The position numbers were made by a program, and so were the translations under genes. 64,000 nucleotides of DNA from Candidatus Omnitrophota bacterium (GTDB taxonomy: Bacteria > Omnitrophota > Gorgyraeia > Tantalellales > Tantalellaceae): contig WJMH01000012.1 of NCBI GenBank assembly GCA_014728045.1, positions 63,239 through 127,238 of the forward strand. Reading direction: 5' to 3'. The notes below the pieces were generated by a model. It had not been told where the DNA came from, did not search any database, and saw only the letters and a list, made by a program, of their open reading frames with translations. Below, in pieces: positions 1-20,206 of the stretch (position 1 is the stretch's first letter; each line of letters begins with the position of its first letter).

Positions 1-2
1 AG

Positions 3-911: not shown

Positions 912-939
912 TATTGTTACGGAAAGGGAACAACAAAAC

Positions 940-1788
940 ATGGGACATGAAGTAGGTATCAGGAAAGATTCACTCACCGTAAAGACATTCATATACATGT
1001 TTCTGATAGCCGGTGCTCTGACGATGGCAGTTCCGTATGTGTGGATGTTCATCACTTCCATCAAACCGTTGTCGGAGATACAGTCCTATCCTCCCAGCTT
1101 CATCGTGAAGAATCCGACACTGGAGCCGTACAGGGACCTTTTCAAGATGGTTCCCATGGTAAGGTATCTGTTCAACAGCCTTTTTGTCGCCGGGTCGATA
1201 ACCCTGTTCAATGTTTTCGCGACCTCTCTTGCCGGTTACGCCTTCGCCAAGCACAAGTTCTGGGGCAGGGACAAGCTTTTCTTCATATTCCTGGGTTCAC
1301 TGATGATACCCTGGCAGGTCAATATCATCCCGGGGTTCGTCATAGTCAAGAAACTCGGCTGGCTAAACACCTACAGGGGGCTTATAATACCCTCGATGGC
1401 ATGGTGCGCTTTCGGTATATTCCTCAACAGGCAGTACATATACAGTATACCCGACGACCTGATCGACGCGGCCAAGATAGACGGCTGCAGTGAATTCATG
1501 ATTTACCGGAACGTGATACTTCCTCTTATCAAACCGGTCGTGGCGACACTGGCCATATTCACGTTCCTGCAGCAGTGGAACAATTTTGTATGGCCGCTGG
1601 TCATAATACATACAAGCGACATGAGGACGATACCTCTGGCGCTGGCTGTACTTACCGGACAGTTCGGCGCGAATTTCGCGATGGTGATGGCAGGAGCCGT
1701 TATTGCCACACTGCCCATGCTCGTCGTATATCTGATGTTCCAGAAGTACATAATCAAAGGTATAGCGATGACGGGCCTTAAAGGATAA
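940..1788 (+). CDS. carbohydrate ABC transporter permease (MalG/UgpE-type)
   Basis: EAA motif 'DAAKIDGCSEFMIYRNVILPLIKP' and TM topology. Immediately downstream of the first permease. Confidence 0.85.
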   Translation: MGHEVGIRKDSLTVKTFIYMFLIAGALTMAVPYVWMFITSIKPLSEIQSYPPSFIVKNPTLEPYRDLFKMVPMVRYLFNSLFVAGSITLFNVFATSLAGYAFAKHKFWGRDKLFFIFLGSLMIPWQVNIIPGFVIVKKLGWLNTYRGLIIPSMAWCAFGIFLNRQYIYSIPDDLIDAAKIDGCSEFMIYRNVILPLIKPVVATLAIFTFLQQWNNFVWPLVIIHTSDMRTIPLALAVLTGQFGANFAMVMAGAVIATLPMLVVYLMFQKYIIKGIAMTGLKG

Positions 1789-1803
1789 AATAGAAAGGAT
1801 AAA

Positions 1804-3426
1804 ATGAAAAAACTCTCTTTATACTTCGTTTTTCTGATAATGATTTCACTTGTCGCGGCAGGCTGCGGCGGAGAGGCAAAGATGGAAGAGCCGGAGGCCG
1901 CTTCTGTCGAAGAGGTGACCGTCGAGACCGTTGAGGTGACCGAAGAAGGACCTCTGGTATATCTGGATGTCACTGATGCCGAAGCCTCAAGCTTTGACAA
2001 AACACCGGACTGGGCGCCCGAACCGAACCCGATGGCTCCCGTGGACGGGGATATGCTCACCCGCTGGTCAAGCGATTATACCGAAGGCGACCAGTGGATC
2101 TATTTCGATCTTGGGAGTAAAAAGGTCGTAAGTAACGTTATTGTTCGCTGGGAAAGGGCCTACGCCACCGATTACCAGATACTGGTATCCAACGACGCTG
2201 AGAACTGGACGATAGTATATGAGGTCAAGAACAGCCGCGGCGGGGACGTGGAAGCCGAGTTCGCTCCGGTCAAGTGCCGTTATGTTATGATTCTCGGCCA
2301 GGAAAGGGTCAACGAGGACTGGGGCATATCCATGTGGGAAGTCGAGATCTATGGTCCGCAGGATCGGAATCCTGAAGCCGACGTGACCAAACAGGAGTAT
2401 CTTTCCAGGGGTGACGACCTGAGCAAGAAGAAAGAGGCCGAAAAGGTTCTTTCAGGGCTTGCGGCCAAACCCGTGCCCATAAGCGAGCAGGAATTCCAGG
2501 AGGGTGTCGTATATACTTCCTGGATGGCCGAGGAGTTTACCAAACCTGTTTCCGACCTTACTCTGGCGGAGCTAAAAAAGATAGGGTATGATACGATAGC
2601 GATAATGGTACCCGCTTATCAGGAGGAGCTTAATTCCACTGAGATATTCACCAACGACTATCCGGGCGGCGACACGCCCACTGACGAGGCGCTCGTCCAT
2701 GCCATAAAGACATGCCACAGGATCGGTCTTAGGGTATTGCTGAAACCCCACGTTGATCCCAGAACGGACGAGGCGAGGATAAACATCATGCCTTCGGAGA
2801 AGTGGTTCGACAGTTACGAGAAGTTCGCTCTCAGATACGCCCGCATGGCGCAGGAGAACGGTGTTGAAATTTATTCTGTGGGTACCGAACTGGAGGCGAC
2901 CACTTTCTCGGCGTGGGCGCACAGGTGGGACCAGATCATCGCCAAGGTCAAGGAAGTATATGACGGTCTGCTGACGTATTCAGCGAACTGGACCGAATAC
3001 AAGGAGGTCCCTTTCTGGGACAAGATGGATTTCATAGGGTTGGACGCGTATTTCCCGCTGGCTGAGGTGGATAACCCTTCCCAGGAAGACTTGGTGCTGG
3101 CATGGGAGGCGATCGCCGATGAAATAGAGACCTGGCTCGGTGAAAGAGGGCTTACCGGAAAGGGCGTGATCCTAACGGAGATAGGATATCCTTCGGCTGA
3201 GGGTGCAGCGCGCCAGCCGTGGGTGGCAATATCCAGTGTCGAGGATCAGCAGGCCCAGGCGGACTGTCTTGACGCCACTTTCGAGGTGTTGACAAAAAGG
3301 CCCTGGTTCAAAGGTTATTATATCTGGCAGTACTTTCCGCAGGAAAGATGGAGCCCTCTCGGGTTCACCGTCAAGGGAAAGAAAGCCGAAGAAATAATTA
3401 AAAAGTGGCTTGAAAAAGTCGAATAA
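1804..3426 (+). CDS. lipoprotein: F5/8 type C (discoidin/CBM32-like) domain fused to a TIM-barrel clan GH-A-like glycoside hydrolase
   Basis: Signal peptide plus lipobox 'AAGCGG'. Discoidin-like block 'WSSDY...WIYFDLG...WEVEIYG'. C-terminal barrel with candidate acid/base 'VGTELE' and nucleophile 'LTEIGYPS'. Paralog of 5111-6244. Confidence 0.55.
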   Translation: MKKLSLYFVFLIMISLVAAGCGGEAKMEEPEAASVEEVTVETVEVTEEGPLVYLDVTDAEASSFDKTPDWAPEPNPMAPVDGDMLTRWSSDYTEGDQWIYFDLGSKKVVSNVIVRWERAYATDYQILVSNDAENWTIVYEVKNSRGGDVEAEFAPVKCRYVMILGQERVNEDWGISMWEVEIYGPQDRNPEADVTKQEYLSRGDDLSKKKEAEKVLSGLAAKPVPISEQEFQEGVVYTSWMAEEFTKPVSDLTLAELKKIGYDTIAIMVPAYQEELNSTEIFTNDYPGGDTPTDEALVHAIKTCHRIGLRVLLKPHVDPRTDEARINIMPSEKWFDSYEKFALRYARMAQENGVEIYSVGTELEATTFSAWAHRWDQIIAKVKEVYDGLLTYSANWTEYKEVPFWDKMDFIGLDAYFPLAEVDNPSQEDLVLAWEAIADEIETWLGERGLTGKGVILTEIGYPSAEGAARQPWVAISSVEDQQAQADCLDATFEVLTKRPWFKGYYIWQYFPQERWSPLGFTVKGKKAEEIIKKWLEKVE

Positions 3427-3447
3427 AACAAGAAGGAGGATGTTAAC

Positions 3448-4038
3448 ATGAAGAAAGTAGCATTAACTCTAGCGGTATTAGGCCTTCTGTTCGCTGGTAC
3501 GGCCGTACATGCACAGGAACAAACTGTTCTTTTCAGTTTTGAGGATGGTTTGCAGGGATGGGAGATCCCGGACTGGGCCTACGAGAAACCTGATCACGTC
3601 CAGAAGGAGATAAGCCCTTCTGCTGATTTCGCCAGCGAAGGCGCTCAGAGCCTGAAGATGGACGTGGAATACCCGGGCGGAAGATGGACAGGCGGGATAG
3701 TCGAGATAATGCAGTATTTCGACTGGACCGATTACAGCAAAATAGCCTGTGACATATATCTTCCCAAGGATGCTCCTCTGGGGCTGAGGGCTAAGATGAT
3801 ACTGACCGTGGGGGACAGCTGGAAATGGGTGGAGATGAGCCGTTCTTTCGGTCTCGTTCCCGGCCAATGGGTCACCCTTACGGCGGATATAACCCCGGGA
3901 AGCATTGACTGGAGAAGGATCCAGGTCGATGAATCTTTCCGCGCTGATATAAGAAAGATAGATATAAGGGTTGAGTCCAATAACAGGCCGGCTTATACCG
4001 GTCCGATCTATATCGATAACGTTCGCGTTATCAAGTGA
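3448..4038 (+). CDS. secreted beta-sandwich (CBM-like) protein, paralog A
   Basis: Signal peptide 'MKKVALTLAVLGLLFAGTAVHA'. About 45% identity by eye to the product of 4197-4913 over 'YLPKDAPLGL...DNVRV'. Confidence 0.4.
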   Translation: MKKVALTLAVLGLLFAGTAVHAQEQTVLFSFEDGLQGWEIPDWAYEKPDHVQKEISPSADFASEGAQSLKMDVEYPGGRWTGGIVEIMQYFDWTDYSKIACDIYLPKDAPLGLRAKMILTVGDSWKWVEMSRSFGLVPGQWVTLTADITPGSIDWRRIQVDESFRADIRKIDIRVESNNRPAYTGPIYIDNVRVIK

Positions 4039-4080
4039 TCCGGTTGACCTGTCATTATTGGGAAAGACCATGAAGCAAGA

Positions 4081-4123
4081 GGGCAGAGACCGGTGGATAG
4101 ACCGGTCTCTGCCTGCTGTTTTG
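4081..4123 (+). terminator. hairpin, possible intrinsic terminator or attenuator between the two CBM-like paralogs
   Basis: Perfect 13-bp stem GGGCAGAGACCGG/CCGGTCTCTGCC with a 6-nt loop, followed by TGCTGTTTTG. Confidence 0.4.
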
Positions 4124-4196
4124 ATGTGTTAACAGCTCCTTTTTGCAAGGCTATTAATAAAACAGGCAAGGTAGGGAAAAGGAAAGGAAAAAGAGA

Positions 4197-4913
4197 ATGA
4201 GTAAAATTCGTTTTAATGTTCCGGTTCTACTGGTGGCAACACTTCTTGTATTTACCGTTATGATAGCCGGTTGCGGCCCCCAGAAAGAGGAAGGTCCCGC
4301 CACCGGAGGTAAGACGATAAAAATATCGAAGAAAGCCGCCTCCCAGACCCAGATGCCGGAAAGGCCGACGCCTTCCACGGCGCCTATTACCGAGACAAGG
4401 ATCTACTACGATTTCGAAAGCGACCTTAACGGATGGGAAGTACCCATGTGGGCGCAGGGCAAGAGGGATCATATCGCCAAGAGCGCGGAGGTTTCCACGG
4501 AAGTGGCCTCCCACGGCAAAGGGAGCATGAAGATAGAGGCGGATTTCCCGGGAGGCATGTGGTCGGCGGCCCTGGTCGAGATACAGCAGTATCTTGACAT
4601 GAGCAATTACCGGGTGATAAGGGCAGATGTCTATCTTCCCCCGGATGCGCCGATGGGGCTTAACGCCAAGCTCATAATCACGGTGGGCGAGACCTGGAAG
4701 TTCGTCGAAATGAGCCGCAGTTATCCCTTGATACCGGGCGAATGGGTGACGATAAACGCCAGCATAGAACCAGGAAGCTACGACTGGAAGAGAGTGGTCC
4801 CGGACGAGAAATTCGCCGAGGATGTACGCAAAATAGCCGTAAGGATAGAATCTAACAAGAAACCTAAGTACACCGGTTCTGTATTCGTGGATAATATCAG
4901 GGTTGGCAGATAG
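4197..4913 (+). CDS. secreted or membrane-anchored beta-sandwich (CBM-like) protein, paralog B
   Basis: N-terminal hydrophobic anchor with lipobox-like 'IAGCG', a Pro/Thr-rich linker, and a C-terminal domain paralogous to 3448-4038. Confidence 0.4.
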   Translation: MSKIRFNVPVLLVATLLVFTVMIAGCGPQKEEGPATGGKTIKISKKAASQTQMPERPTPSTAPITETRIYYDFESDLNGWEVPMWAQGKRDHIAKSAEVSTEVASHGKGSMKIEADFPGGMWSAALVEIQQYLDMSNYRVIRADVYLPPDAPMGLNAKLIITVGETWKFVEMSRSYPLIPGEWVTINASIEPGSYDWKRVVPDEKFAEDVRKIAVRIESNKKPKYTGSVFVDNIRVGR

Positions 4914-5110
4914 TATCCGCTGATAGATATATCCATTTTGGTCGGTTTGCTGTTACGGAACGGACTTGTTAGCCCGGGGAGAGGTCCTGTAAGGATCTTT
5001 CGTGATCTGTGATATATTCTTTTTTTTGCCCGGTTAGTTTCTACATTTATAATCCGGGCGGAAGAAGTTTAAAAAACGTTTGAAAAATCATTCTACGAAA
5101 GGAAAAGATC

Positions 5111-6244
5111 ATGCCTAAGAAAAAATCCCAAGAGAAACCGAAAGAGAAAGGACAGGCCAAAACAGCGGCAAAAAAATCTTCCAAAAACCTTTTTCTGAAG
5201 GTGTTGATACCCGTTGTCGCGGTCGTAGTGGTTGCCGCGGCCGCATTCACACTTATCAAATTTGTGCCGCAGGGCACCGGAGTAAGGGCGGAGTTCCAGA
5301 AGGGGATAGGATACGTAACCTGGTCGCAGGGAGGCTACCTTACCGAAAATTCTGACGAGTCCCTAGCAAAGGCCAGCCAGATCGGGACCGAGTGGGTCAG
5401 CATTCTGGTCACCTGGTACCAGACGACGCCCTGGTCAGGTGATATACAGAGGACCTCCAAGACCCCTTCCGACGAAGCGGTGGTGCATGCCATACGCAAG
5501 GCACACGAGCTGGGTCTGAAGGTATGCCTCAAGATGCACCTGGATCTGTTGGATACCTCCGACGGCAGCTGGAGAGGCGAGATAGGCAGCATGAGGGAAT
5601 CCGAATGGGACGATTGGTTCAGGAAATATACCGAATATATCATGTATTACGCAAAGATGGCCGAAGAAGAGGATGTCGAGATGCTTTGCGTGGGGACGGA
5701 GCTGTCGACCACCGCCACAGCCAAGGGATATATGTGGGAAGACCTGATCAGGACCGTGAGGGGTTCTTTCTCGGGACTATTGGTATACGCGGCGCACTGG
5801 GACCGGTATCTTGATATCCGGTTCTGGCATATGCTCGACTTTGTCGGGATAAACGCGTATTTCCCGCTTACCGAAGAGATGGCCCCCAGTTACGATGAAT
5901 TGCGCGAGGGTTGGAGCAAATGGGTCGCGGAGATCGAGGATTTCCAGGAAAGAGTGGGTAAACCGATCATTTTCCCGGAGGCCGGTTGTAATTCCGCCGA
6001 CGGCGCGGCTATACGACCATGGGAACACATCCCAAGGAGCGAAGTAAATCTTCAGCTGCAGGCGGATTATTACAGGGCCCTCCTGGAGGAATTCTGGGAC
6101 AAGGAATGGTTCTACGGCCTGTACTGGTGGTACTGGGGCACTAACGCTAGCATGGGCGGTAAATATAACCGGGGTTTTACGCCGCAGAACAAGCCGGCCG
6201 AAGAGGTCATACAGAAATGGTACTCCAAACCGGTTTCGAAGTAA
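5111..6244 (+). CDS. membrane-anchored TIM-barrel glycoside hydrolase (clan GH-A-like), paralog of the 1804-3426 catalytic domain
   Basis: Lys-rich N-terminus plus one TM helix. 'VGTELSTT' and 'IIFPEAGCNS' align to 'VGTELEAT' and 'ILTEIGYPS' in the paralog. Shared 'NAYFPL' motif. Confidence 0.5.
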   Translation: MPKKKSQEKPKEKGQAKTAAKKSSKNLFLKVLIPVVAVVVVAAAAFTLIKFVPQGTGVRAEFQKGIGYVTWSQGGYLTENSDESLAKASQIGTEWVSILVTWYQTTPWSGDIQRTSKTPSDEAVVHAIRKAHELGLKVCLKMHLDLLDTSDGSWRGEIGSMRESEWDDWFRKYTEYIMYYAKMAEEEDVEMLCVGTELSTTATAKGYMWEDLIRTVRGSFSGLLVYAAHWDRYLDIRFWHMLDFVGINAYFPLTEEMAPSYDELREGWSKWVAEIEDFQERVGKPIIFPEAGCNSADGAAIRPWEHIPRSEVNLQLQADYYRALLEEFWDKEWFYGLYWWYWGTNASMGGKYNRGFTPQNKPAEEVIQKWYSKPVSK

Positions 6245-6287
6245 ACTATCCAGCGTGTCGCTTGAAAATATGTGAAGGAGTATTCAC

Positions 6288-7547
6288 ATGAGGGAGTTCA
6301 TAGCAAAGGAGAATAGGCTCTCCGAGAAGGAGAGAAGGAACCTGAGCATTCTCGATGCCATACGCAGAGGAGGGGAGATATCCAGGGCGGAGATATCCAA
6401 AGTGACCGATCTGAATATCGTTACCGTTTCAAATTATGTCAGCAAGTACATAAAGAACAAGATCGTCTTTGAAACGGGTCTTGATATCTCCACCGGCGGA
6501 AGAAGGCCGGAGCTTCTCAAGCTGAACGGAGATTACGCCTACAGTATAGGCATAGACCTTGGTTCGCCTCATCTTACCATTGACGCGGCGGTCGTGGGGG
6601 TCCTGATGGATATGACCGGCAAGGTGATCGCCCAGGAGAAGGTCCCCAAGGAAAAGGAATCTTTCGAAAAGCTCACCGAGAGAGTGCTCGGCATGGTCGA
6701 CGACCTCATACGCAAATCAGGTGTTTCCCCTTCGGACATAAAGGGTATAGGCGTAGGCATATGGGGTGTTATCGACCGTTACCGGGGGATGGTGCGTTAC
6801 GCGGTCGAGAACGAACAGATCGTAAGTTATACTAACCTCCTGAGCCAGCTGGAGGCCAGGTTTGACGCCCCGACGCTTATCGAGCATGATGCCACATTGG
6901 CAGCTTTCGGGGAAAGATGGTCGGGTATTGGTGCCGGGAGTTCTGCATCCAACCTGATTTTTCTGTGTTCCGATTCAAGCTGCGGGCTCGTCATAAAAGG
7001 GGATCTCTACTACGGAGCTACGAAGAGCGCAGGGGAGCTCAATCTGAATCCTCCTTATCCTGGGGAGGAATCAAGCCCGGACAAATGCTGGGCGAGTTAT
7101 GATTACGGATGCTGTCTGCGTTCCAGGGGGCTGGACCTTGGTATACCCGACCGGATCAGGAGTTATCTCGGGGAGCATCCCGGGGAAGGCAAGGCAATAA
7201 TGGAGGCCTGCGGCGGGGATGCTGAAAGAATAGATTTCAGGACCGCAATAGAGGCTGCCGAAAAAGGGGACGACCTTGCAAGACTGACCCTTGAGGATGC
7301 AGGGGACTATCTCGGCACCAAAATAGCTTTTTTGATAAACCTTTTTAACCCCGAGGTGGTCGTCGTCGGCAGGGGCATTGAGAAAGCGGGAGATATATTC
7401 TTCTCTTCGGTGCGCAGGGCCGTTAGAAAGTGGGGTTACGAAGAATCGGTAAAGGTCGTCAAGATACTACCGACCAGCCTGGGCGATAACGTTGTCAGTG
7501 TCGGCGCCGGAGCCCTGGTCATACAGAATCTATTCGCTGAAGTGTAA
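6288..7547 (+). CDS. ROK-family transcriptional regulator (NagC/XylR/Mlc-like)
   Basis: N-terminal winged HTH 'ISRAEISKVTDLNIVTVSNYV' followed by a sugar-kinase-like ROK fold with Gly-rich and Cys-containing segments. Confidence 0.7.
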   Translation: MREFIAKENRLSEKERRNLSILDAIRRGGEISRAEISKVTDLNIVTVSNYVSKYIKNKIVFETGLDISTGGRRPELLKLNGDYAYSIGIDLGSPHLTIDAAVVGVLMDMTGKVIAQEKVPKEKESFEKLTERVLGMVDDLIRKSGVSPSDIKGIGVGIWGVIDRYRGMVRYAVENEQIVSYTNLLSQLEARFDAPTLIEHDATLAAFGERWSGIGAGSSASNLIFLCSDSSCGLVIKGDLYYGATKSAGELNLNPPYPGEESSPDKCWASYDYGCCLRSRGLDLGIPDRIRSYLGEHPGEGKAIMEACGGDAERIDFRTAIEAAEKGDDLARLTLEDAGDYLGTKIAFLINLFNPEVVVVGRGIEKAGDIFFSSVRRAVRKWGYEESVKVVKILPTSLGDNVVSVGAGALVIQNLFAEV

Positions 7548-7563
7548 AGAGAAGGAGAGGAAC

Positions 7564-8799
7564 GTGTTGCTAAAAAAGATAATAACATCATTAATTCTGT
7601 CCGTTTTTGTTTTTTCATTATCCGGTTGTGGCGCAGGCGCGGAGAAAAAGGACCAGATAGTCATGTGGCTTGTAGGGTCCGAAGGCCAGGCCCAGACCAT
7701 AACCCAGCTCAGCAAGAAGTTCACCGAAAAGACCGGTGTCGAGGTCCTGTGCCAGGCCATATCCTGGGGCGATGCCCACAGCAAGTACCTTACTTCCATA
7801 GCCGGCGAAGTTACTCCCGACATAGGGACCATGGGGCTGACATGGGGCATGGAGTTCGGCGAACTGGGTGCCATGGTCAATTTGCGTGAAACTTACCCGG
7901 AAGACGTCGAAGAGCTTGAGACTAAGATATTCCCCAGCATCCTTGAATCCACCAGAGTGGGCGATAAAGTATACGGCATACCTTTTGACCTGTCGGTGCA
8001 GATCATGTACTACAGGAAAGATATGATACCGGAGCCACCCAGGACCTGGGATGATCTTCTCCAGACGATAAAGGGGCTGAAGTCAAAAGAGAAGGGAATG
8101 GTGTATGACTGGGGATCGCTTGAGTGGATAGGTTATTCTCCCTTCCTCTGGCAGTCGGGAGGAAGTTACTACAATGATGATTTCACTCAGGTGACGCTGG
8201 ATACCCCCGAGGCCGCGGAGGCCATGGGTTATTTTGCCAGTTTATATAAGGCGGGTATGCCGAAAACACAGGTTCCGCTCGAGCAGGGAATGAGGACGGG
8301 GGATTATCCTCTGGCGATATCGGGTAACTGGAAGATCGTGAGCCTTACCGTGGGTGCTCCCGAGCTGGAAGGCAAATGGGGCATAGCCATGCTTCCCAAG
8401 GGACCCACCGGCAAGCGCACCGCTTTCATCGGCGGAAGGATACTCGGTATATTCTCAAGATCCAAAATGAAGGACGAGGCATGGGAATTCATCAAGTTCC
8501 TTTTCAAGCCCGAGAACCAGATCAGGATATATGAGGATTCACTCGAGACAGAAGATTCGTATCTTCCTCCCAACATGGATACCTGGAGCGACCTGCCGAT
8601 GGACCAGGAATTTAAGCGCGTTCTGGTGAGCCAGGCCAAGGACGCCAAGGGACCACCGCCTGTTCTGGCCTGGGATTCAAGCACGAGATTCATTAACCAC
8701 GCCATACAGATGGTGGTATTAAAGGGCGCAGATCCGGCCGAACAGCTCGAGAAAGCTACTGTAAATATGCAGAAAGAACTTGAACAGAGAGGCAGATGA
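7564..8799 (+). CDS. ABC transporter extracellular solute-binding lipoprotein (family 1, sugar-type)
   Basis: GTG start after RBS GGAGAGG (the ORF track starts at 7492 inside the ROK gene). Lipobox 'LSGCGAG'. Typical SBP length and composition. Confidence 0.75.
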   Translation: MLLKKIITSLILSVFVFSLSGCGAGAEKKDQIVMWLVGSEGQAQTITQLSKKFTEKTGVEVLCQAISWGDAHSKYLTSIAGEVTPDIGTMGLTWGMEFGELGAMVNLRETYPEDVEELETKIFPSILESTRVGDKVYGIPFDLSVQIMYYRKDMIPEPPRTWDDLLQTIKGLKSKEKGMVYDWGSLEWIGYSPFLWQSGGSYYNDDFTQVTLDTPEAAEAMGYFASLYKAGMPKTQVPLEQGMRTGDYPLAISGNWKIVSLTVGAPELEGKWGIAMLPKGPTGKRTAFIGGRILGIFSRSKMKDEAWEFIKFLFKPENQIRIYEDSLETEDSYLPPNMDTWSDLPMDQEFKRVLVSQAKDAKGPPPVLAWDSSTRFINHAIQMVVLKGADPAEQLEKATVNMQKELEQRGR

Positions 8800-8822
8800 T
8801 CTAAGCGCGCATCACTTATCCA

Positions 8823-8855
8823 AAGGGCGGCTTTCTAAGCCGCCCTTTTTTTATA
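8823..8855 (+). terminator. intrinsic terminator after the uptake locus
   Basis: AAGGGCGGC-TTTCTAA-GCCGCCCTT followed by T8. Confidence 0.75.
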
Positions 8856-8988
8856 AATTACCTAGAAAAAACAACTTACAAAATACGTTAGTCAATAAAA
8901 AGCTAGTTTTTTTAGTTGATGTTAGGCTAAAAAATTGTTATTATGCATTAGGAGATAAAATATTCAGTAAAAGGCAAATTACGCATTT

Positions 8989-11715
8989 TTGGAAAGGCAG
9001 GATATGCACGGTGTAAGAGGAAGATCATGGTTCAGGATCGTAAGTCTTGTACTTGTACTCACGTTAATATTTTTTGATATAGCACAGGCGAGCCAGATAA
9101 ATATCCCCGAAGCAGCAGAAAAACTTTCCGCGGAACTCCCTTTTCAGACCGAGATAATGTCAAATGAAAAGGAAGCTGTCCGTAGATCGCTGTTCGCGGA
9201 TATGAAACTGCTCGCATCAGCGCAGAATATCGCCAAATATCTTCTTGAGGACAGGCTGCCACTGGAACATCTCGAAGCGGTAATATCACGTGAAACGGGC
9301 CAGATCATAGGTGGGATAGATCTATCCAAGGTCAATTTTTCCCCAGATAAGAAGGTCGTCATAATCCCGTGCGTCTGTTCGGGACATAAATGCCTAATAC
9401 AGGTGGCACTTAAGGATGAACTTCCCCGGGATGGGCTCTCTGGTCAGAAATGGGTAGCATCTGCCAAGTATTTGATCTATGTTTCTTTCGGGGAAAAAGA
9501 AGAGTCAAAAAAGACAAAAAGCGAAAAGACCCCCCCGGCAAAGACCCCCCCTGATAATACCGGTTCCAGGAAGGGAAAACATAATCTAACCGCCCGTAAT
9601 TGCTACAGGGCGATGTACTGCTTAAGGCCGGTCACGATCGCTGTGACCGTGGTATTCGGATGGATCTATCTGGTCCACGGCATGACCGACCCCATGAAGT
9701 TGCTTTCATGGGCGATCATCAACGTTCTGGCCTTTACGACCGCCTATTACTGGTACATGGGAAGGGATATACGTTCTTCCATGATAGAAGTGGGGGTTCC
9801 GGAAGACAAGGCTCTTGATGAGCCGGTCTCCAACACCGAAGGGTTTCTGCATCATGCTTTCAACCATCTCAGTAAAATGGAACAGAGCAGCGTGCTCAAG
9901 CACGAGGTCCTGAAGTGGCATCCTCTCGGGATGGTCTTCATGACGCCTATTCCGAGCTTGCTTCTGGCCCCTTATTTCTGGTTCGCGATCGACAGGTTCT
10001 ATAATATCTCTTCGATGTACGCGGGGATAGACCATAATAATCCCGAGAGCATTTACGAGTACGCCCAGCTGGGTTACCCCAAAATAAGGGCTTTCGCTAT
10101 CGAGAGGTCCTGGCAGATAGAAGATATAGACAAAATGGGCAGGCTTTTCGTTCTAGCCTACGGCAGGGACAGTGAACTGGCCGAGCCGGCTATTCATAAG
10201 CTGTTCAATTCCGGTAATGTCGAGAAGATAAGGGAATACTCCAAACAGTGTATGATGGCCTATGCCGACAAGGTCTTTGATGTATGCCATGTAAGGGCCA
10301 TACTCGTCAGGGACTGCATGCAGGGTGAAATCAAAGAAAAACTGGCGGAGAAGCTGGCCGAGCATGTGACCACCTGGGAGGATTTTAAGAGGGTCGTGGC
10401 CCTTATAGATCACCATTATGAGCGGAAAGCTCCTTGTTTCACGAAGCTGCACGCGATGGCAGAAACACCGGGTGAGATAGAAAAACTTTTTCTCGGTGAA
10501 AGGATCTTCTCTAAATTCGGGAAAATACGACGCCACAAGGAAGTCCATGTAGATCCCAAATATGAAAGAGATGCTTCATATAAACTGGCACGCGCGGTTG
10601 CTGAAGTCTACGGCATGAGTGAACTTACCGGCGGCCAGCTGGAAGATGTACTTATTGCCGTCAAGGACGTTGTTTCGTTCCACCAGGCCAGGAAACCCGC
10701 GTATACATTCGTAGAGGAACTCGCCGAAAACCCGAACGACCTTAAAAGGAGCATACTGGCCCAGGGAGGGCTTATCCCCAGCCGGAAGAGCGAAGCGGAA
10801 CAGAAGCCCATTCCCGGGGAAGAAGAGGTGGAGCTTCCGGCCAACAACAACCGGGAAAAACTTATCAATGCCTGTAACGACATGGTCGCGATCCTTGCCT
10901 TGAGAAGCGATATAACCAGAGAATTCATGGGGAACGAAACTAATACGGACATTGTTTTCACGGCCGAGGCGCTGCTGGCTGATCTTGAGAGGATACGAGA
11001 GACGGGGGAGGCCCCGATCCTTTTTACGGAAGCTGTCATGGAGGTCGAGAGGACCTTGAGGGAGAATCTGCGGGAATTTGAGTCAGCGGGTCTTGTCTCA
11101 TCCATCATAACGCTCGCAAGAAAGGCCAGGAGAGAGGACAGAAACCTTATTATCGGCGTTGAGACCGCCTGGATACCGGGTTCGGAGCGGGCCACAATGC
11201 AGCACATGGCGATAAATCCCCTTATCACCGATATCAAATCCCTGGGATCGAAACTTAGGTCCATCGGCCTTGATAACGTTATCATAGTGCATGATAAAAG
11301 GGATTATCTTGCCCACCAAGTCATATGGCAGACCACAAAGGATGGCCCCAATAGCGATTATTCCAATGTGGTCATACTTGCTTCTCAGGATACCATAAAC
11401 TCTAAGGCTTTCGATCCTTTACGCAGCACCCGGACGGAGCAAAAGGCTTTTCTTGCCGGTGTCGACCACAGCGAGCTTGACGCTTTCACCGAGAAGAGTA
11501 CTGAAGATTACACGCAGATAAGGATACGCTTGGTGCAGATGCTGGCGCTCGCTCTTGAGTTGGCATCCGGGCAGAGTGCGCCGGAGCTCCCGATCATACG
11601 CGAATATAACAAGACGCTCAGGACTGTCATATTCCTTCCCGGGGCGGAGCCGATGGATTTCAGGGAATTGCAGAGGCTTTACAGAGCGCAGCAGAAAGCC
11701 CTTGAGGCGGCGTAA
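8989..11715 (+). CDS. large orphan membrane protein (908 aa), function unknown
   Basis: Signal or anchor helix, then about 190 aa of extracytoplasmic region with a 'KTPPAKTPP' repeat, then 3-4 TM helices, then roughly 560 aa of helical cytoplasmic region. No catalytic motif recognised. Preceded by a 130-bp AT-rich region. Confidence 0.55.
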   Translation: MERQDMHGVRGRSWFRIVSLVLVLTLIFFDIAQASQINIPEAAEKLSAELPFQTEIMSNEKEAVRRSLFADMKLLASAQNIAKYLLEDRLPLEHLEAVISRETGQIIGGIDLSKVNFSPDKKVVIIPCVCSGHKCLIQVALKDELPRDGLSGQKWVASAKYLIYVSFGEKEESKKTKSEKTPPAKTPPDNTGSRKGKHNLTARNCYRAMYCLRPVTIAVTVVFGWIYLVHGMTDPMKLLSWAIINVLAFTTAYYWYMGRDIRSSMIEVGVPEDKALDEPVSNTEGFLHHAFNHLSKMEQSSVLKHEVLKWHPLGMVFMTPIPSLLLAPYFWFAIDRFYNISSMYAGIDHNNPESIYEYAQLGYPKIRAFAIERSWQIEDIDKMGRLFVLAYGRDSELAEPAIHKLFNSGNVEKIREYSKQCMMAYADKVFDVCHVRAILVRDCMQGEIKEKLAEKLAEHVTTWEDFKRVVALIDHHYERKAPCFTKLHAMAETPGEIEKLFLGERIFSKFGKIRRHKEVHVDPKYERDASYKLARAVAEVYGMSELTGGQLEDVLIAVKDVVSFHQARKPAYTFVEELAENPNDLKRSILAQGGLIPSRKSEAEQKPIPGEEEVELPANNNREKLINACNDMVAILALRSDITREFMGNETNTDIVFTAEALLADLERIRETGEAPILFTEAVMEVERTLRENLREFESAGLVSSIITLARKARREDRNLIIGVETAWIPGSERATMQHMAINPLITDIKSLGSKLRSIGLDNVIIVHDKRDYLAHQVIWQTTKDGPNSDYSNVVILASQDTINSKAFDPLRSTRTEQKAFLAGVDHSELDAFTEKSTEDYTQIRIRLVQMLALALELASGQSAPELPIIREYNKTLRTVIFLPGAEPMDFRELQRLYRAQQKALEAA

Positions 11716-11740
11716 GCCCGAGCGGGATGTTTGAGGATAA

Positions 11741-11777
11741 TAAAAAAAGGAGGCTTGTACAAGCCTCCTTTTTTTAT
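11741..11777. terminator. bidirectional intrinsic terminator between convergent genes
   Basis: A7-GGAGGCTTGTACAAGCCTCC-T8. Confidence 0.8.
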
Positions 11778-11793
11778 TATATAAGCGGGTATT

Positions 11794-12696
11794 TTAGAAA
11801 AGTATCTGCACCTTCGCGATGTATTCCCACGCTGCGCTAACGCGCCTGAACCTTTCGCTGGTTCCGTCGCCGCGTCCCCATGCGGTCTGTCCAAGCTGAA
11901 GCTCGAGGTTAAGACTGGACTGAGCTCCTTTTTTAACACTGGAGAAGCCTTTTCCCAGGAGGTTTATAATGGGGCCGGCGCGCCAGGTAATGGTGTCTTT
12001 ACGCACTCCCGTTCCCTGATGGGAAAGCCTCACATCCAGCTCGCCTTTCAACATGAGCCAGTCAAAGGGGGAGATGCCGCCTTCGAGGAACATGGGAAAA
12101 TAATTCGCGAAATCTGCATTGACCCCCGTATCGATCTGCCAGAAATAACCGAACTCACCGGACACGTAAGCAGGTTTTTTGAACACTGTGAAGGATTTTC
12201 CCACAAGGCCCCGCAGTTCCACGCCGTTACCGTATTCAAACAGGTCGGGCTGTTGGACCACATCGGGGTTTCCCGGATGGATGTAGAACTTGAGCTGTCC
12301 GGCAGCCACGACGGGTTTATCCATGAATTTGTATTTTATGCCGGGTTGTATCTGCTTGAAGCCTTCGTGCTTGGCTTTTTGGCTATTGAACTGCGCGGTG
12401 CTGAAATCGTTCTTCCAGTGGCTCCAGGTATAGGGGATATTGAGCAGGATGTTCAGGTTATCGTTGAAGCCGAACTCAAATTTCTGCTCGAGGTCGTATA
12501 TCTCCGATATCCCGCCGTGGTCCCAACGGCTCCTGTCACCGTTCTCATCGAACGCTCTTTTGGAGACAAAATAACGGAAAAACGTTTCTGTCCAGAGCTT
12601 GTTCTTTTTTAGTGTCCATGGTCCCGCGTGGGAGACCTCAGGCATCAGAAGAGCGACAAAGAGTGCCGCAGTAATGAAGAAAGCCGTTCTTTTCAT
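11794..12696 (-). CDS. outer-membrane beta-barrel protein (putative porin or channel)
   Basis: Signal peptide 'MKRTAFFITAALFVALLMPEVSHA'. Alternating amphipathic strands. C-terminal '...KVQILF' ends in Phe, typical of OMP beta-barrels. Confidence 0.5.
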   Translation of the reverse strand: MKRTAFFITAALFVALLMPEVSHAGPWTLKKNKLWTETFFRYFVSKRAFDENGDRSRWDHGGISEIYDLEQKFEFGFNDNLNILLNIPYTWSHWKNDFSTAQFNSQKAKHEGFKQIQPGIKYKFMDKPVVAAGQLKFYIHPGNPDVVQQPDLFEYGNGVELRGLVGKSFTVFKKPAYVSGEFGYFWQIDTGVNADFANYFPMFLEGGISPFDWLMLKGELDVRLSHQGTGVRKDTITWRAGPIINLLGKGFSSVKKGAQSSLNLELQLGQTAWGRGDGTSERFRRVSAAWEYIAKVQILF

Positions 12697-12725: not shown

Positions 12726-12992
12726 TTATCTGCTTAATCCGAAAAGAGCCGCGAACCAGGCCATAATGCTTGCCTGGCCTTTTTGTTCATCAAGTATGGA
12801 TTTAACGTCATTGGGCGAGAGGATGCCTTTTTCGGTCATGATGGCGCCGATTTCCTTGTGCTGCTGGTGCTTTTGTTCGTATTCCTTTTGTATGCGCAGC
12901 GCCTCTTTTACCTCATCCTCTGATGCAAGACCGCGTCCCACAGCGATTTCGCCGAATTTCTTGGTCTTCTTTTTCCTTAAAAATTCAAACAT
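12726..12992 (-). CDS. small protein with two tandem MshEN/GspE-N-like (putative c-di-GMP-binding) motifs and a C-terminal hydrophobic tail
   Basis: 'KFGEIAVGRGLASEDEVKEALRIQ' and 'EIGAIMTEKGILSPNDVKSILDEQ' both fit the 24-residue RLGxxLxxxGxIxxxxLxxALxxQ pattern. Lies upstream of the OMP in the same minus-strand operon. Confidence 0.45.
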   Translation of the reverse strand: MFEFLRKKKTKKFGEIAVGRGLASEDEVKEALRIQKEYEQKHQQHKEIGAIMTEKGILSPNDVKSILDEQKGQASIMAWFAALFGLSR

Positions 12993-13163: not shown

Positions 13164-14003
13164 ATGAGTTACATAAAGACGGGTTTATTGCTGGTCGTAA
13201 TGACCTTCATTCTGATGTGGGTCGGAAGTCTCGTGGCAGGCCCCAGAGGCGTTATTATAGCTTTTATTGTAGCCATGGTGCTCAACGGGGTCAGTTACTG
13301 GTACAGTGACAAGATAGTGCTGAAGATGTACAACGCCAGGCCGTTATCATCCCGGGAGAACGCCGATATCTATTCGGTGGTGGAAGAGCTCAGCTCCAGG
13401 GCAGATATACCCGCACCCAGGGTATATATAACGGACGTTGCCGTTCCCAACGCTTTCGCGACCGGAAGAGACCCCGACAATGCCGCTTTATGCCTTACCA
13501 GGGGGCTTGTGGAATTACTGGACAAGGAGGAGCTTAAGGGCGTCATCTCCCACGAGCTTTCGCATATCAAACACCGAGATACCCTTATCATGACGGTCAC
13601 CGCGGCCATGGCGAGCGCGATAATGATGGCTGTTTACATGGCCAGATGGGCGGCCATTCTCGGCGGGTTTTCCAGGGAGAGGAATGACTCGGGTAACATC
13701 ATAGGATTATTGGCCGTAAGCATATTTGCCCCGATAGCCGCCCTTATAGTCCAGCTGGCCATATCCCGTTCGCGGGAATACGCCGCTGATACAAGGGGAG
13801 CCGAGATAGCCGGTTCCCCCGAGGGGCTCGCCAGGGCCCTGGAACAGATGGCCCGGGGCAATGAACGCACCAGATTCGACGCGGCGCCCCAGACTCAACA
13901 CCTGTTCATCGTCAAGCCGTCCGCGAATAATTTCGTTGCCAACCTGTTCAGCACGCATCCGCCTGTGGCCGAACGGGTCAAAAGACTCAGGAGCATGGCC
14001 TAA
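13164..14003 (+). CDS. htpX: HtpX-like M48 zinc metalloprotease
   Basis: Two N-terminal TM helices. Zincin motif 'HELSHIKHRD'. Two further TM helices. Length typical of HtpX. Confidence 0.85.
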   Translation: MSYIKTGLLLVVMTFILMWVGSLVAGPRGVIIAFIVAMVLNGVSYWYSDKIVLKMYNARPLSSRENADIYSVVEELSSRADIPAPRVYITDVAVPNAFATGRDPDNAALCLTRGLVELLDKEELKGVISHELSHIKHRDTLIMTVTAAMASAIMMAVYMARWAAILGGFSRERNDSGNIIGLLAVSIFAPIAALIVQLAISRSREYAADTRGAEIAGSPEGLARALEQMARGNERTRFDAAPQTQHLFIVKPSANNFVANLFSTHPPVAERVKRLRSMA

Positions 14004-17459: not shown

Positions 17460-17574
17460 GATTCCTTACCCCCCCTTATTGTCTGTCAACTCAATATGGT
17501 CGCTTATCCCTTAATGGCAAATATACCATGTACGAAAATCAAAGTCAAAACAATAATGGAGCTTGGATGGATGA

Positions 17575-17661
17575 TGGTGCGGGCGAAGGGACTCGAACCC
17601 CCATGGAGTTTCCCCCATATGGACCTGAACCATACGCGTCTGCCAATTCCGCCACGCCCGC
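17575..17661 (-). tRNA. tRNA-Leu (anticodon CAG)
   Basis: Reverse complement folds as a cloverleaf: acceptor GCGGGCG/CGCCCGC, anticodon loop TTCAGGT, long variable arm, TTCGAGT T-loop, encoded CCA. Confidence 0.85.
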
Positions 17662-17806: not shown

Positions 17807-18265
17807 ATGCCAAAAGAAAACACAAGTGTGGTAACTAACCGTCAGGCATACCGCGATTTTCATATAGAGAAGACTTATGAAGCCGGGTTGGAGCTCTTTG
17901 GTAATGAAGTAAAATCCCTGAGGACGGGAAACGCGAACTTAAAGGGTAGTTTCTGCAGGATAGAAGGGGGCGAGATATTCGTTCACAACATGCATATAAG
18001 CCCTTATGACTTCTCTTCCGATGAAACCGACCCTGTGAGGCCGAGAAAGCTCCTGCTGCACCGAGCGCAGATAAGGAGTCTTGGTATAAAGCTCGCGCAG
18101 CAGGGTTATACCCTGGTACCTCTAAAGGTTTATTTCAAGCGGGGGTACGCCAAGATGGAGATAGGGCTCGGCAAGGGTAAGAAACTTTACGATAAAAGGC
18201 AGGCCCTTAAGGAAAAACAGGTAAAGCGCGAAATGGACCGCATAATGCGGCATAAGAGAAGATAG
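17807..18265 (+). CDS. smpB: SsrA-binding protein SmpB
   Basis: Full-length similarity to SmpB ('GNEVKSLRTGNANLKGSFC...', C-terminal basic tail 'KRQALKEKQVKREMDRIMRHKRR'). Confidence 0.9.
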   Translation: MPKENTSVVTNRQAYRDFHIEKTYEAGLELFGNEVKSLRTGNANLKGSFCRIEGGEIFVHNMHISPYDFSSDETDPVRPRKLLLHRAQIRSLGIKLAQQGYTLVPLKVYFKRGYAKMEIGLGKGKKLYDKRQALKEKQVKREMDRIMRHKRR

Positions 18266-18276
18266 CTCTTTGATAT

Positions 18277-18662
18277 GGGGGTGACAGGACTCGACGTGTT
18301 CTTTAGGTCTTGGAGCAGCATGCAGAGGTTCCAGGTGGCCTCTTTAAAAACCTGGAAAACAATAAACGCAGACTACAATCCAGTAGCCGAAGCCGAGTCT
18401 ATCTTGGCTGAGGATGCGTTAAATGTTCCCTCTATGATGGGAACTGGTTCATTAGTTGGCGCCTTGGCCATCTAAATAGGACCTAAACTAACAAGGACTG
18501 CTGTAGTGATTTCTCCTAGCTTCAGCCAGTATCAGGAGAATGCTCCCGGAAGGTTCCCCGTCTATCGGGTCTTCCCGGAAAAGATCAATAGGTAGACTAA
18601 GCATGTAGATACTCCTCGGTCAAAGTTCCCGGACCCGGGTTCGAATCCCGGCACCTCCACCA
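18277..18662 (+). ncRNA. ssrA: tmRNA (ssrA)
   Basis: 5' GGGGGUGACAGGACUCGACG and 3' GGUUCGAAUCCCGGCACCUCCACCA form a tRNA-like acceptor and T-arm. Resume codon GCA lies about 95 nt from the 5' end. Tag ORF runs to UAA at 18476-18478. Immediately follows smpB. Confidence 0.85.
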
Positions 18663-18709
18663 ATTTTTCCAAGCATAAAGCCGATTTCCATCAGGGAGTC
18701 GGCTTTTTT
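18644..18709 (+). repeat. 66-bp direct repeat, copy 1 (tmRNA 3' end plus terminator)
   Basis: Identical to 20207-20272 ('AATCCCGGCACCTCCACCAATTTTTCCAAGCATAAAGCCGATTTCCATCAGGGAGTCGGCTTTTTT'). Confidence 0.85.
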
Positions 18710-18710
18710 A
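18676..18710 (+). terminator. intrinsic terminator of ssrA
   Basis: AAGCCGA-N14-TCGGCTT followed by T6. A second copy sits at 20239-20272 inside the downstream repeat. Confidence 0.6.
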
Positions 18711-20206
18711 TAAATCATTATAACGATGTATGCATAATTACGCATTTTACGTAATCCTGGGGATGCAGGTTAGGACTTGAGGGGTGAACAAAAATGGAGT
18801 GTATTCCAAATTAGTTGATCTATTTTGGAAATAATCGAGATTAGATATGCTGGATCGCTTTTTATGCGGAAAAAACAAGTAAATCTTGCATTTTTATAAG
18901 TTTTAAGTATACTTAAAATATATATAAAAAATAAAGGAGTTTTAAGTATGATTAAAGAATATATTAAAAGAAAACACTATCTTGATAAGGTTTCTTCTTT
19001 TATTGATAAAGATATCATTAAGGTGATCGTCGGACAGCGCCGAGTAGGGAAAAGTTACTTGTTATACCAGATAATGGATATCATCAGGGATAAAGGTGTG
19101 AAAGCCGGAAATATAATTTATATAAATAAAGAACTACATGATTTCGATGATATTAATACTTATAAAGACCTTTTGGAGTACATAGAGGGAAGGATAAAAA
19201 ATAAAAGAAAACATTATGTTTTTCTTGATGAGGTTCAGGAAATAGAAAAATTTGAAAAAGCTTTGGAAAGTATGCAGGCCTCAGGCAAGTATGATATTTA
19301 CTGCACAGGCAGTAACGCGAATCTACTTTCCGGTGAATTGGCTACTCACCTTAGCGGGCGATATGTCGAAATTAAAGTTTATGGTCTTTCATATCCTGAA
19401 TTCCTTAATTTTCATAAATTGAATAATGATCAGGAATCTCTTTTAAAGTACATCAGGTACGGTGGCCTTCCGTTCTTGATCAATCTGGAGTTCAAGGATG
19501 AGATCATCTATGAATACCTTAAGAATATTTACAGTACGATCCTTTTCAAGGACATCGTGAAAAGACATTCGATACGGAATGTAGCATTCTTAGAACGCCT
19601 GGTTGAATATCTGGCCGATAATACGGGTTCTTTGGTTTCGGCGAAAAGCATAAGTGATTTTTTAAAATCCCAGAAGATAAAACTTTCCCCCAATATTGTA
19701 TTGGATTACTTATCCTTCTTATCGTCTGCTTTTTTTGTGTTTAAAGTCCAAAGGTCTGATGTAGCAGGCAAAAAGATATTTGAGATCGGCGAAAAATATT
19801 ATTTCGAAGATCTTGGGTTAAGACATTCTGTAGTCGGATATAAACAGGTAGATATCAATAAAGTCCTGGAAAATCTTGTTTTTCTTCATCTAAAGATCTC
19901 CGGATACAAGATAACTGTGGGAAAGTTAAAAGATAAAGAAATCGATTTTGTATGCACTAGAGGCGGGGAAAAGTTATATGTACAGGTAGCATATCTAATA
20001 GATAGCCAGAAGATCATAGACAGGGAATTCGGAAATCTTTTAAAAATAGAAGATAATTATCCGAAACTTGTAGTTTCAATGGACGAGGTGGGGGGAGATA
20101 AATACAAAGGAATTGAGCAGGTTAATATAAGAAAGTTCTTAGGTAGTTTACTTTAGAAAACAGAAAAAACGTGGTGAAATGCCCCAGTTGAGCACGAAAA
20201 TAGGAA
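18710..20206 (+). mobile_element. AT-rich islet inserted at the tmRNA 3' end, bounded by 66-bp direct repeats; no integrase
   Basis: Duplication of the tmRNA terminus and lower GC than the flanks. Single cargo gene. Confidence 0.5.
18948..20156 (+). CDS. AAA-family ATPase with C-terminal DUF4143 (COG1373-type)
   Basis: Walker A 'GQRRVGKSYLL'. Walker B 'VFLDEVQ'. C-terminal block '...KEIDFVCTRGGEKLYVQVAY...' resembling DUF4143, possibly a PD-(D/E)xK-like fold. Confidence 0.7.
   Translation: MIKEYIKRKHYLDKVSSFIDKDIIKVIVGQRRVGKSYLLYQIMDIIRDKGVKAGNIIYINKELHDFDDINTYKDLLEYIEGRIKNKRKHYVFLDEVQEIEKFEKALESMQASGKYDIYCTGSNANLLSGELATHLSGRYVEIKVYGLSYPEFLNFHKLNNDQESLLKYIRYGGLPFLINLEFKDEIIYEYLKNIYSTILFKDIVKRHSIRNVAFLERLVEYLADNTGSLVSAKSISDFLKSQKIKLSPNIVLDYLSFLSSAFFVFKVQRSDVAGKKIFEIGEKYYFEDLGLRHSVVGYKQVDINKVLENLVFLHLKISGYKITVGKLKDKEIDFVCTRGGEKLYVQVAYLIDSQKIIDREFGNLLKIEDNYPKLVVSMDEVGGDKYKGIEQVNIRKFLGSLL

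Follow-up and report, generated by a model that had tools for sequence, protein, structure and literature searches.

A 903-residue Omnitrophota protein as a compact, cargo-free member of a family of very long membrane-associated proteins

The gene and its product

We analyzed the longest open reading frame (ORF) in a 64-kb stretch of DNA (64,000 nucleotides, hereafter the window) from contig WJMH01000012.1 of a Candidatus Omnitrophota bacterium. The ORF lies at 8989-11715 on the forward strand and encodes 908 aa when read from a TTG codon. An earlier note on this DNA had described the product as an orphan polytopic membrane protein whose expression might be switched by two runs of cytosines. 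Judged by its sequence, the protein belongs, as a compact member free of cargo, to a multigene family in which two end modules are locked to the termini and a membrane cassette between them can be repeated. The gene, its expression signals and the parts of its product are listed in Table 1.

The gene is real and is the largest in the window, as had been proposed, with its length corrected from 908 to 903 aa. A ribosome-binding site precedes the ATG at 9004, and the site (shared form GGAAAGGyAGGAT) and the start codon are both kept in the ortholog of L001. The 903-aa product is also identical to a protein deposited at NCBI from a Candidatus Omnitrophica metagenome-assembled genome (MAG). Because of this conservation and the exact match, ATG 9004 is taken as the true start. 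The 903-aa protein is called the query below.

Table 1. Positions in the window of the gene, its expression signals and the parts of the 903-aa product
Feature	Position	Strand	Description
Intrinsic terminator of the upstream sugar-binding protein gene	8822..8848	+	12-bp stem and T-run; -20.2 kcal/mol, z -5.9
Promoter block	8895..8975	+	A/T-rich upstream tract, -35, -10 and start of the 5' untranslated region (UTR); promoter scan
Ribosome-binding site GGAAAGGCAGG	8991..9001	+	Precedes ATG 9004; conserved in L001
Coding sequence	9004..11715	+	903 aa and stop; ATG 9004 replaces the TTG start at 8989
Sec-signal-like N-terminus (aa 1-30)	9004..9093	+	Basic n-region, hydrophobic core, A-Q-A↓S; Kyte-Doolittle 2.17
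N-module domain (aa 31-170)	9094..9513	+	~140 aa, alpha+beta, conserved motifs; family-wide, always N-terminal
Hypervariable charged linker (aa 171-192)	9514..9579	+	Holds the duplication 9524-9553 and both C7 runs
Membrane cassette (aa 186-430)	9559..10293	+	H193-x-L-T-A, two transmembrane helices (TM), His/Glu loop, weak hydrophobic stretch, conserved helical part
TM1 (aa 206-228)	9619-9687	+	Hydropathy
TM2 (aa 236-256)	9709-9771	+	Hydropathy
Loop with H283 and H300-E301...H306-x2-G-M	9850-9921	+	Alignment A6
Weak, proline-rich hydrophobic stretch (aa 309-329)	9928-9990	+	Hydropathy
Helical middle region (aa 431-589)	10294..10770	+	Shared only with the closest orthologs; coverage profile
C-module (aa 590-903)	10771..11712	+	~300 aa; three long helices, then alpha/beta domain
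C-module, three long helices (aa 613-710)	10840-11133	+	AlphaFold2 model
C-module, alpha/beta domain (aa 715-903)	11146-11712	+	AlphaFold2 model
Terminal A-L-E-A-A-COOH	11698-11712	+	Family C-terminal logo
Bidirectional intrinsic terminator	~11737..11780	both	A7-GGAGGCTTG-TACA-CAAGCCTCC-T7; shared with the convergent 300-aa gene

A family with fixed ends and a variable middle

Curated libraries gave no hit when searched with the whole protein (Pfam at E up to 1, NCBIfam, PADLOC, PHROGs and PDB sequences), which agrees with the earlier remark that no domain could be recognized. The word orphan did not survive an exhaustive phmmer search against 1.84 billion cluster representatives. This search returned 493 relatives at E <= 1e-3, of which 280 reached E <= 1e-10 and 132 reached E <= 1e-30, and the N- and C-terminal parts of the query match family profiles. 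A word-indexed search returned just two homologs, 52% identical. Nearly all of the 150 hits listed align to about residues 600-903 of the query at their own extreme C-terminus, and they range from ~200 to 5572 aa in length. Alignments and profiles were made for three modules: the N-module (A7), the cassette (A6) and the C-module (A3). In word-index profile searches, A3 returned four proteins and A6 none. When the members of the module alignments were run one by one against Pfam at E up to 10, no consistent match emerged, and sequence and profile searches of the PDB with the whole protein and the three modules gave nothing meaningful. The search for remote homology, which took in these profiles and a Foldseek comparison of the C-module model, thus yielded no significant match to a characterized family.

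The two end modules keep to the ends of the proteins that carry them. Of the 114 relatives of at least 800 aa, 99 begin with the N-module and 113 have the C-module running up to their last residue. Neither module turned up as a full copy inside a family sequence, and the idea that the giant members are fusions of family units was rejected on this ground. Proteins with both end modules measure 729-5572 aa (median 1619 aa), which puts the query near the minimum. Short proteins consisting of a C-module only could be standalone genes; this was rejected for one of them, P0029, which turned out to be the end of a gene of ~2000 aa that a scaffold gap interrupts. The other short C-module hits come from contigs of ~1 kb and are probably fragments too. 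Scaffold gaps are visible in L026, part of a public MAG, as runs of N at 2782-2827, 7562-7599 and 13490-13569, which break a ~2000-aa family gene into separately called pieces. Separately, a helical motif of ~45 aa taken from the beginning of the C-module (LFEIVE..NN.RA..V..AN) appears one more time, at a more upstream position, in a few long relatives (P0067, P0105, P0024 and P0128).

What lies between the end modules differs from relative to relative. The domains recognized there include HEAT repeats, APH-like kinase, PHP, DUF218 and guanylate-kinase-like P-loops, as well as HD, B12-binding, radical SAM and PEP-utilising domains. NAD-dependent sugar epimerases/dehydratases, PIG-L, GT2, GFO/IDH/MocA and an NDK-like segment were also found. 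The query has no match to a Pfam or NCBIfam domain in its cargo slot, and the HEAT, HEAT_2 and HEAT_PBS models found nothing in it at E up to 1. Recognizable cargo is a typical trait of the family that does not define it, and the query lacks it.

The members that have a database name are annotated as "hypothetical protein" and come from Candidatus Omnitrophota MAGs. When one genome for each GTDB species was scanned with a pattern, 20 loci were confirmed, every one of them in Omnitrophota or in MAGs loosely labelled Planctomycetia/Planctomycetota. Among the members that can be placed by taxonomy, the family was found only in Omnitrophota-type genomes. Several genomes carry more than one copy, and hidden Markov models (HMMs) of the N- and C-modules, run over the ORFs of the window, identified the query as its sole family member. 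In other genomes, family genes stand in tandem, with the C-module of one followed by the next N-terminal family motif within ~150-230 bp. Such head-to-tail genes were seen in L023 (1-1065), L004/L005 (24821-26132) and L003. Very long genes of 2011, 2971 and >7800 aa in the neighborhood have no C-module, and since some neighboring giants lack it, the family must be one among several.

The modules of the query

The N-terminus of the query looks, by inspection, like a type I Sec signal peptide, for which a basic n-region, a core of 12-16 residues and small residues at -3 and -1 are the usual marks. It has arginines at positions 5, 7 and 11 (R5, R7, R11), the core IVSLVLVLTLIFF and then ...IFFDIAQA↓SQ, where the arrow marks the apparent cleavage site. 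The family shares these features: its consensus is F(K/R)xISLxLIxxFIxLDISWA↓YP, with [SA]xA↓YP dominating, the n-region averages 2.9 K/R against 0.4 D/E, the core has a hydropathy of 2.5, small residues occupy -3 and -1, and the mature start is acidic. Behind this segment comes the N-module domain, and the HMM of the whole N-module matched the query with an E-value of 1.6e-55 over aa 9-193. The module has no match in Pfam or PDB. The ~190 exposed residues of the earlier description are therefore not featureless, being made up of this conserved family domain and a variable linker.

The membrane cassette that follows is repeatable, with 24 domain hits in 15 proteins and up to three per protein. 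Invariant or near-invariant positions are H193, G226, Y249, G264, G280, H283, H300-E301, H306, G309, P315 and Y339. In 12 long copies from eight proteins, H300, E301, H306 and the glycines are invariant and H193 and H283 nearly so, and the copies otherwise share 18-26% identity with the query. The query has H-E-x4-H, one residue longer than the H-E-x3-H of its relatives. We found no match to the cassette in Pfam, in PDB (E up to 10) or by word index. The motifs H-x-(F/L)-T-A, G-Y-x-H-x-A and H-E-x3-H-x2-G-M, placed on one membrane face, could plausibly make up a putative metal site. Membrane association had been proposed in the form of a core of three to four helices; the association holds, and the count does not, as there are two clear helices and one weak stretch. 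This third hydrophobic stretch has 21 residues in the query and ~14 hydrophobic residues in most cassette copies.

The cassette was also compared with the Lipocone superfamily, whose Skillet clade has been reported in gigantic proteins of Omnitrophota (PMC12419801). Both are small helical membrane domains that occur within Omnitrophota giants alongside polysaccharide enzymes. The Skillet signature consists of ExxQ in helix 3, an Asp in helix 4 with a second Asp three residues upstream of it, and an Asp in helix 2 (PMC12419801). It is absent from the cassette, which conserves His, Glu, Gly, Tyr and Pro, and the identification was rejected.

The middle region occupies the slot that holds HEAT repeats or enzymes in relatives. 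It is all-helical in a low-confidence model, since the full-length AlphaFold2 prediction (three sequences) reached a predicted local distance difference test score (pLDDT) of 41 and is usable for rough secondary structure only. The C-module gave a much better model from an alignment of 38 sequences, with a pLDDT of 89.7 and a predicted template modelling score (pTM) of 0.86. In this model, the last part is a parallel alpha/beta domain whose final helix carries the conserved terminus. The ~560-aa C-terminal region that the earlier note described as helical is helical only in part, and its last ~190 aa form this alpha/beta domain.

The C-module HMM matched the query with an E-value of 3.7e-109. 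The query ends in ...KALEAA and the family in A-L-x-[AS]-A: among 152 family C-termini, A stands at -5 in 118, L at -4 in 129, [AS] at -2 in 141 and A at -1 in 129, and 141 of the 152 sequences end in [AS][ALVM]. An ssrA-like degradation tail was considered for this AL-x-AA end and set aside: the local tmRNA tag, as ARAGORN predicts it, ends in ...GALAI and is only weakly similar. Foldseek found nothing significant for the C-module in the PDB. The best matches (E 0.014, TM ~0.2) were to generic flavodoxin-like folds, that is, three-layer alpha/beta domains such as sugar-binding proteins, SIS domains, type I periplasmic binding proteins and lumazine synthase, for the alpha/beta part. BFVD, profiles of PDB sequences and member-by-member Pfam searches gave no match to the C-module either. 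Near-invariant positions are a Ser that follows strand 3 and an Asp that follows strand 4; a loop after strand 1 (E/T/D-W-x-P-G) is moderately conserved, and there is an R-S-T motif. Flavodoxin-like folds bind ligands at the C-terminal strand ends, and it is there that the conserved polar residues are found.

Membrane topology

The earlier note had placed one part of the protein outside and the bulk inside the cell. Two observations bear on the topology. In paralogs that lack the cassette, no helix lies between the N-module and the soluble enzymes that directly follow it, and any later helices are paired. Also, in 16 relatives with a clear helix pair, the loop between the helices is poor in K/R (0.9) and the flanks are rich in them (2.9 and 3.1). 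Because of the cassette-less paralogs and the paired helices, we place the N-module, the cargo and the C-module on one and the same side of the membrane; this arrangement is probable. Paralog architecture favors it over the earlier division, unless the weak third hydrophobic stretch, which has only ~14 hydrophobic residues in most copies, spans the membrane. As for which side the bulk of the protein faces, the two possibilities appear about equally probable from the sequence features. A helical hairpin at the N-terminus (aa 62-84), which would have led the chain back to the cytoplasm and so reconciled the conflicting topology signals, was tried and rejected, with a mean hydropathy of 0.90 and an acidic segment following it.

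Interpretation and alternatives

The reading we favor takes the query as a cargo-free family member whose end modules serve as generic handles, a bare scaffold tethered by the membrane hairpin. Taken as a whole, its chances of being right and of being wrong seem to us evenly balanced. The N-terminal signal would direct the protein to the inner membrane, and the hairpin of the cassette would hold it there, with the N-module, the helical region and the C-module on the same side. The end modules, rather than being the business end, would be handles used across the family for targeting, anchoring or assembly at a shared membrane machine or partner. The query itself may then serve this system as a bare scaffold, an adaptor or a base subunit, so that the earlier suggestion of a novel system component is kept as a possibility.

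Several points weigh against the scaffold reading. The topology signals conflict: the N-terminus looks like a textbook cleaved Sec signal, which implies export, while the charge bias of the hairpin flanks and the cytoplasm-type, cofactor-dependent cargo of the paralogs point to a cytoplasmic bulk. The third hydrophobic stretch, with its 21 residues in the query, may span the membrane. The handle, docking or targeting role of the end modules is inferred from their fixed positions in proteins that have no homology to a characterized protein. The alpha/beta domain of the C-module could equally be a ligand-binding or catalytic domain, as it keeps a cluster of polar residues at the C-terminal strand ends. 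Finally, the family statistics rest on the best 150 of the 493 hits, and 152 sequences entered the profile analysis.

A possible, though rather unlikely, alternative is that the family consists of secreted or surface effector carriers. In this case the signal would be cleaved and the whole protein exported, with conserved arms that carry or anchor a variable middle at the cell surface or deliver it into a prey or host cell, and the query would be an empty carrier. The canonical signal features found across the family ([SA]xA↓YP, a basic n-region and an acidic mature start) fit this idea, as do the terminus-locked end modules and the fast divergence of the gene relative to its neighbors. Surface or predatory roles have also been proposed in the literature for giant proteins of Omnitrophota. 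Much of the cargo in paralogs argues otherwise, since radical SAM, B12-binding, NAD-dependent epimerase, NDK-like, kinase and GT2 domains normally need cytoplasmic cofactors, and the charge pattern of the hairpin suits cytoplasmic flanks. The alpha/beta C-module is also not a sorting domain of the beta-barrel or beta-sandwich type, and no secretion genes lie beside the gene.

Two known kinds of exported protein resemble such a carrier in outline. MARTX toxins have conserved ends, a variable modular middle and very large size. They share no sequence or fold similarity with the query, which has no glycine-rich repeats, and they leave the cell by type I secretion without a Sec signal; an effector role drawn from this likeness would be speculation. 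Type V autotransporters and cargo with a type IX C-terminal domain combine an N-terminal signal, a passenger that varies and a conserved domain at the very C-terminus. The C-module differs in being a ~300-aa helix bundle plus alpha/beta domain rather than a beta-barrel or a beta-sandwich of ~80-100 aa, and no matching secretion genes are nearby.

A further reading is that the three modules form a lineage-specific chassis. Its terminus-locked ends, of which the C-module has a conserved free carboxy-terminus, would bind a common partner or each other, and together with its repeatable, metal-binding two-helix cassette they would tether, sort or chain arbitrary cargo at the membrane. This proposal, which draws on the architecture of the family, is tentative and on balance unlikely.

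The query could instead be a membrane-bound metalloenzyme, which we consider improbable. The His/Glu cluster (H193, H283, H300-E301 and H306) would bind the metal at the membrane surface and form a catalytic center, for example of a peptidase that processes family members or envelope substrates, and the end modules would be accessory. The persistence of these residues over 12 copies that are otherwise so diverged speaks for such a site. Peptidases of family M49 have the zinc motif H-E-x3-H (HExxxH), which the motif of the relatives recalls. The recurrence of cassettes at intervals within giants would also suit self-processing. Profile and sequence searches showed no similarity to a peptidase or metalloenzyme, however, and the cassette is modelled at low confidence only. 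Zincins are recognized by HExxH or HExxxH together with a third ligand motif and profile similarity, and the query lacks this combination: its H-E-x4-H is one residue too long and no second zincin motif was identified.

Lastly, the N-terminal helix or N-module of one member might dock on the C-terminal bundle or alpha/beta domain of another to build a long membrane chain. Docking domains chain separate proteins in modular polyketide synthases. Head-to-tail assembly is highly improbable here: the argument is architectural, the N-terminal helix looks like a cleavable signal peptide, and the window has one family member. Not all of these alternatives are mutually exclusive.

The C7 tracts

Two runs of seven C are present at 9530-9536 and 9545-9551, as the earlier note had reported, and they encode KTPPAKTPP. 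That note had proposed that slippage in them makes expression phase-variable. After a slip of +/-1 in either tract, translation would end at residue 183 or 194, shortly ahead of the first membrane helix; two opposite slips (+1/-1) bring the frame back. Runs of at least seven C or G are rare in the window, with three observed against ~7.7 expected from base composition, and two of the three sit 8 bp apart. The protein also evolves faster than its neighbors, as exposed proteins often do. These facts fit an envelope protein toggled between a full-length membrane form and a truncated N-terminal fragment.

The remaining evidence goes the other way. A length of seven does not exceed, and may fall short of, that at which poly-G/C tracts in the contingency loci of Campylobacter, Neisseria and Haemophilus are usually hypermutable. 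Contingency genes of these bacteria resemble the query in having C tracts in frame near the 5' third of a membrane-protein gene, where a change of +/-1 truncates the product. They differ in that the tracts of the window are only seven long, come from one duplication, have no counterpart at the orthologous site and have yielded no observed variant. Both runs are contained in an imperfect 15-bp tandem duplication (9524-9538 and 9539-9553, 13/15 identical), and they are adjacent because of it. The duplication falls in the least conserved segment of the protein, where identity to the orthologs is 26-27% (aa 111-195).

In related genomes, the aligned orthologs P0002 and P0003 have no KTPP repeat. 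The ortholog genes of L001 and L002, the two examined as DNA, have no C/G run of six or more, and their linker sequences are unrelated. A pattern scan of public metagenome contigs, allowing 4-11 bases per tract, gave no match of any length, and the exact gene is on record as one copy, in frame. The tracts look incidental, left by a recent 15-bp duplication in a linker that evolves fast, and do not resemble a conserved switch. Phase variation, which these comparisons leave unsupported, is the least probable of the explanations considered.

A third run of at least seven C or G lies at 17469-17475, between a YdjC-like ORF (ending at 17180) and a tRNA-Leu gene (17575-17661). The terminator scan also flagged a minus-strand "terminator" at 9523-9551. 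It consists of the two G7 runs complementary to the C7 tracts, paired by G-T wobble; the duplication creates it as an artefact, and it is not a likely signal.

Relation to known Omnitrophota proteins

Omnitrophota are uncultured, ultra-small and possibly predatory bacteria with the longest predicted proteins in biology. Their long or giant membrane-associated proteins have been the subject of several reports (West-Roberts et al. 2023, bioRxiv 10.1101/2023.11.21.568195; a 2026 preprint, 10.64898/2026.06.07.730766; Seymour et al. 2023, PMC10066038). The reported giants contain HEAT scaffolds, radical SAM, PGM/PMM, kinases and sugar-nucleotide enzymes, together with a signal peptide as well as TM helices. 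The present family belongs to the same phylum, reaches at least 5572 aa, has content of the same kinds and stands in tandem with other very long genes. The query differs in its length of 903 aa and in having no recognizable cargo. We found no description of the N-module, cassette or C-module in the literature on Omnitrophota giants. Long modular membrane-associated proteins are a known kind in Omnitrophota; the three modules and the minimal form are, as far as we searched, undescribed.

At least one large subfamily of the long proteins of Omnitrophota thus shares three modules that have neither a database entry nor a structural relative. The 903-aa version, a conserved single-copy gene with little beyond the modules, is tractable for studies of structure, localization and interaction. 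If the chassis proposal is true, it is a natural minimal form and offers an entry to how the phylum builds and places its giant proteins. Profiles A7, A6 and A3 would improve the annotation of hundreds of "hypothetical" proteins. The picture of an orphan with a possible switch gives way to that of a candidate minimal chassis of a lineage-specific giant-protein family, and the idea of phase variation can be set aside.

Promoter, terminators and transcription unit

The gene forms a transcription unit of its own, with its own promoter and strong terminators on both sides, as had been predicted. The AT-rich upstream region was confirmed as well: the ~150 bp at about 8850-9003 have a GC content of 0.34-0.37 against ~0.51 elsewhere. 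The predicted promoter has the -35 element TTGATG (8916-8921), a 17-nt spacer and a TG-extended (TG-n) -10 element, TATTAT (8939-8944). Over ~70 nt, the DNA of the promoter block is ~95% identical to that of L001, compared with 52% for the encoded protein, and the -35 and -10 elements persist in L002, whose ortholog has 36% protein identity. From these comparisons, the gene appears as one that is retained, driven by a conserved promoter and fast-evolving.

The conserved promoter stretch corresponds to 4620-4700 in L001 and ~9850-9930 in L002. Because the A/T-rich tract and ~25 nt at the beginning of the 5' UTR are part of it, an operator or UTR element might exist. Rfam matched no family to the conserved 5' region; an RNA element was rejected on this ground, as the promoter accounts for the conservation.

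The terminator upstream has compensatory stem changes in L001 and L002. The downstream terminator scores -26 kcal/mol (z -8.8) on one strand and -25.4 kcal/mol (z -8.6) on the other. Because it folds equally well on either strand, it is considered bidirectional between the convergent genes.

Orthologs and genomic neighborhood

The gene neighborhood is conserved, and the gene occupies an equivalent position in five genomes, represented by the window, a JGI contig, L001, L002 and L006. GH113 mannanase genes, a ROK regulator and a sugar-binding protein come before the 903-aa gene. Beyond it are a 300-aa signal-peptide protein and an 88-aa protein, both on the opposite strand, and then PMT_2, GT2 and YdjC genes, which are preceded by an M48 peptidase gene in the window and the JGI contig. 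Neighbors are 68-79% identical between the syntenic genomes, compared with 52% (L001) and 36% (L002) for the 903-aa protein. By module, identity to L001 and L002 is 47% and 36% for the N-module, 46% and 26% for the cassette, 57% and 25% for the middle region, and 60% and 46% for the C-module.

The convergent 300-aa protein (11794-12696, minus strand) has a signal peptide and ends in ...VQILF like an outer-membrane barrel. It and the 88-aa protein (12726-12992, minus strand) have no meaningful Pfam hit; both are 68-79% identical in syntenic genomes and always adjoin the 903-aa gene. On the other side, positions 1-8799 of the window hold a cluster resembling those for mannan utilization, which is conserved in the ortholog contigs. 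It contains two ORFs that are ABC permease-like by position, GH113, the ROK regulator and the sugar-binding protein, and CBM/mannan-binding proteins are found in the cluster of the homolog contigs. No functional link between this cluster and the 903-aa gene is established. Further downstream in the window, ARAGORN called a permuted tmRNA at 18568-18990 that has no support from Rfam. It overlaps a tmRNA gene at 18277-18662 on the forward strand (Rfam, 162.8 bits), which lies directly downstream of smpB (17807-18265).

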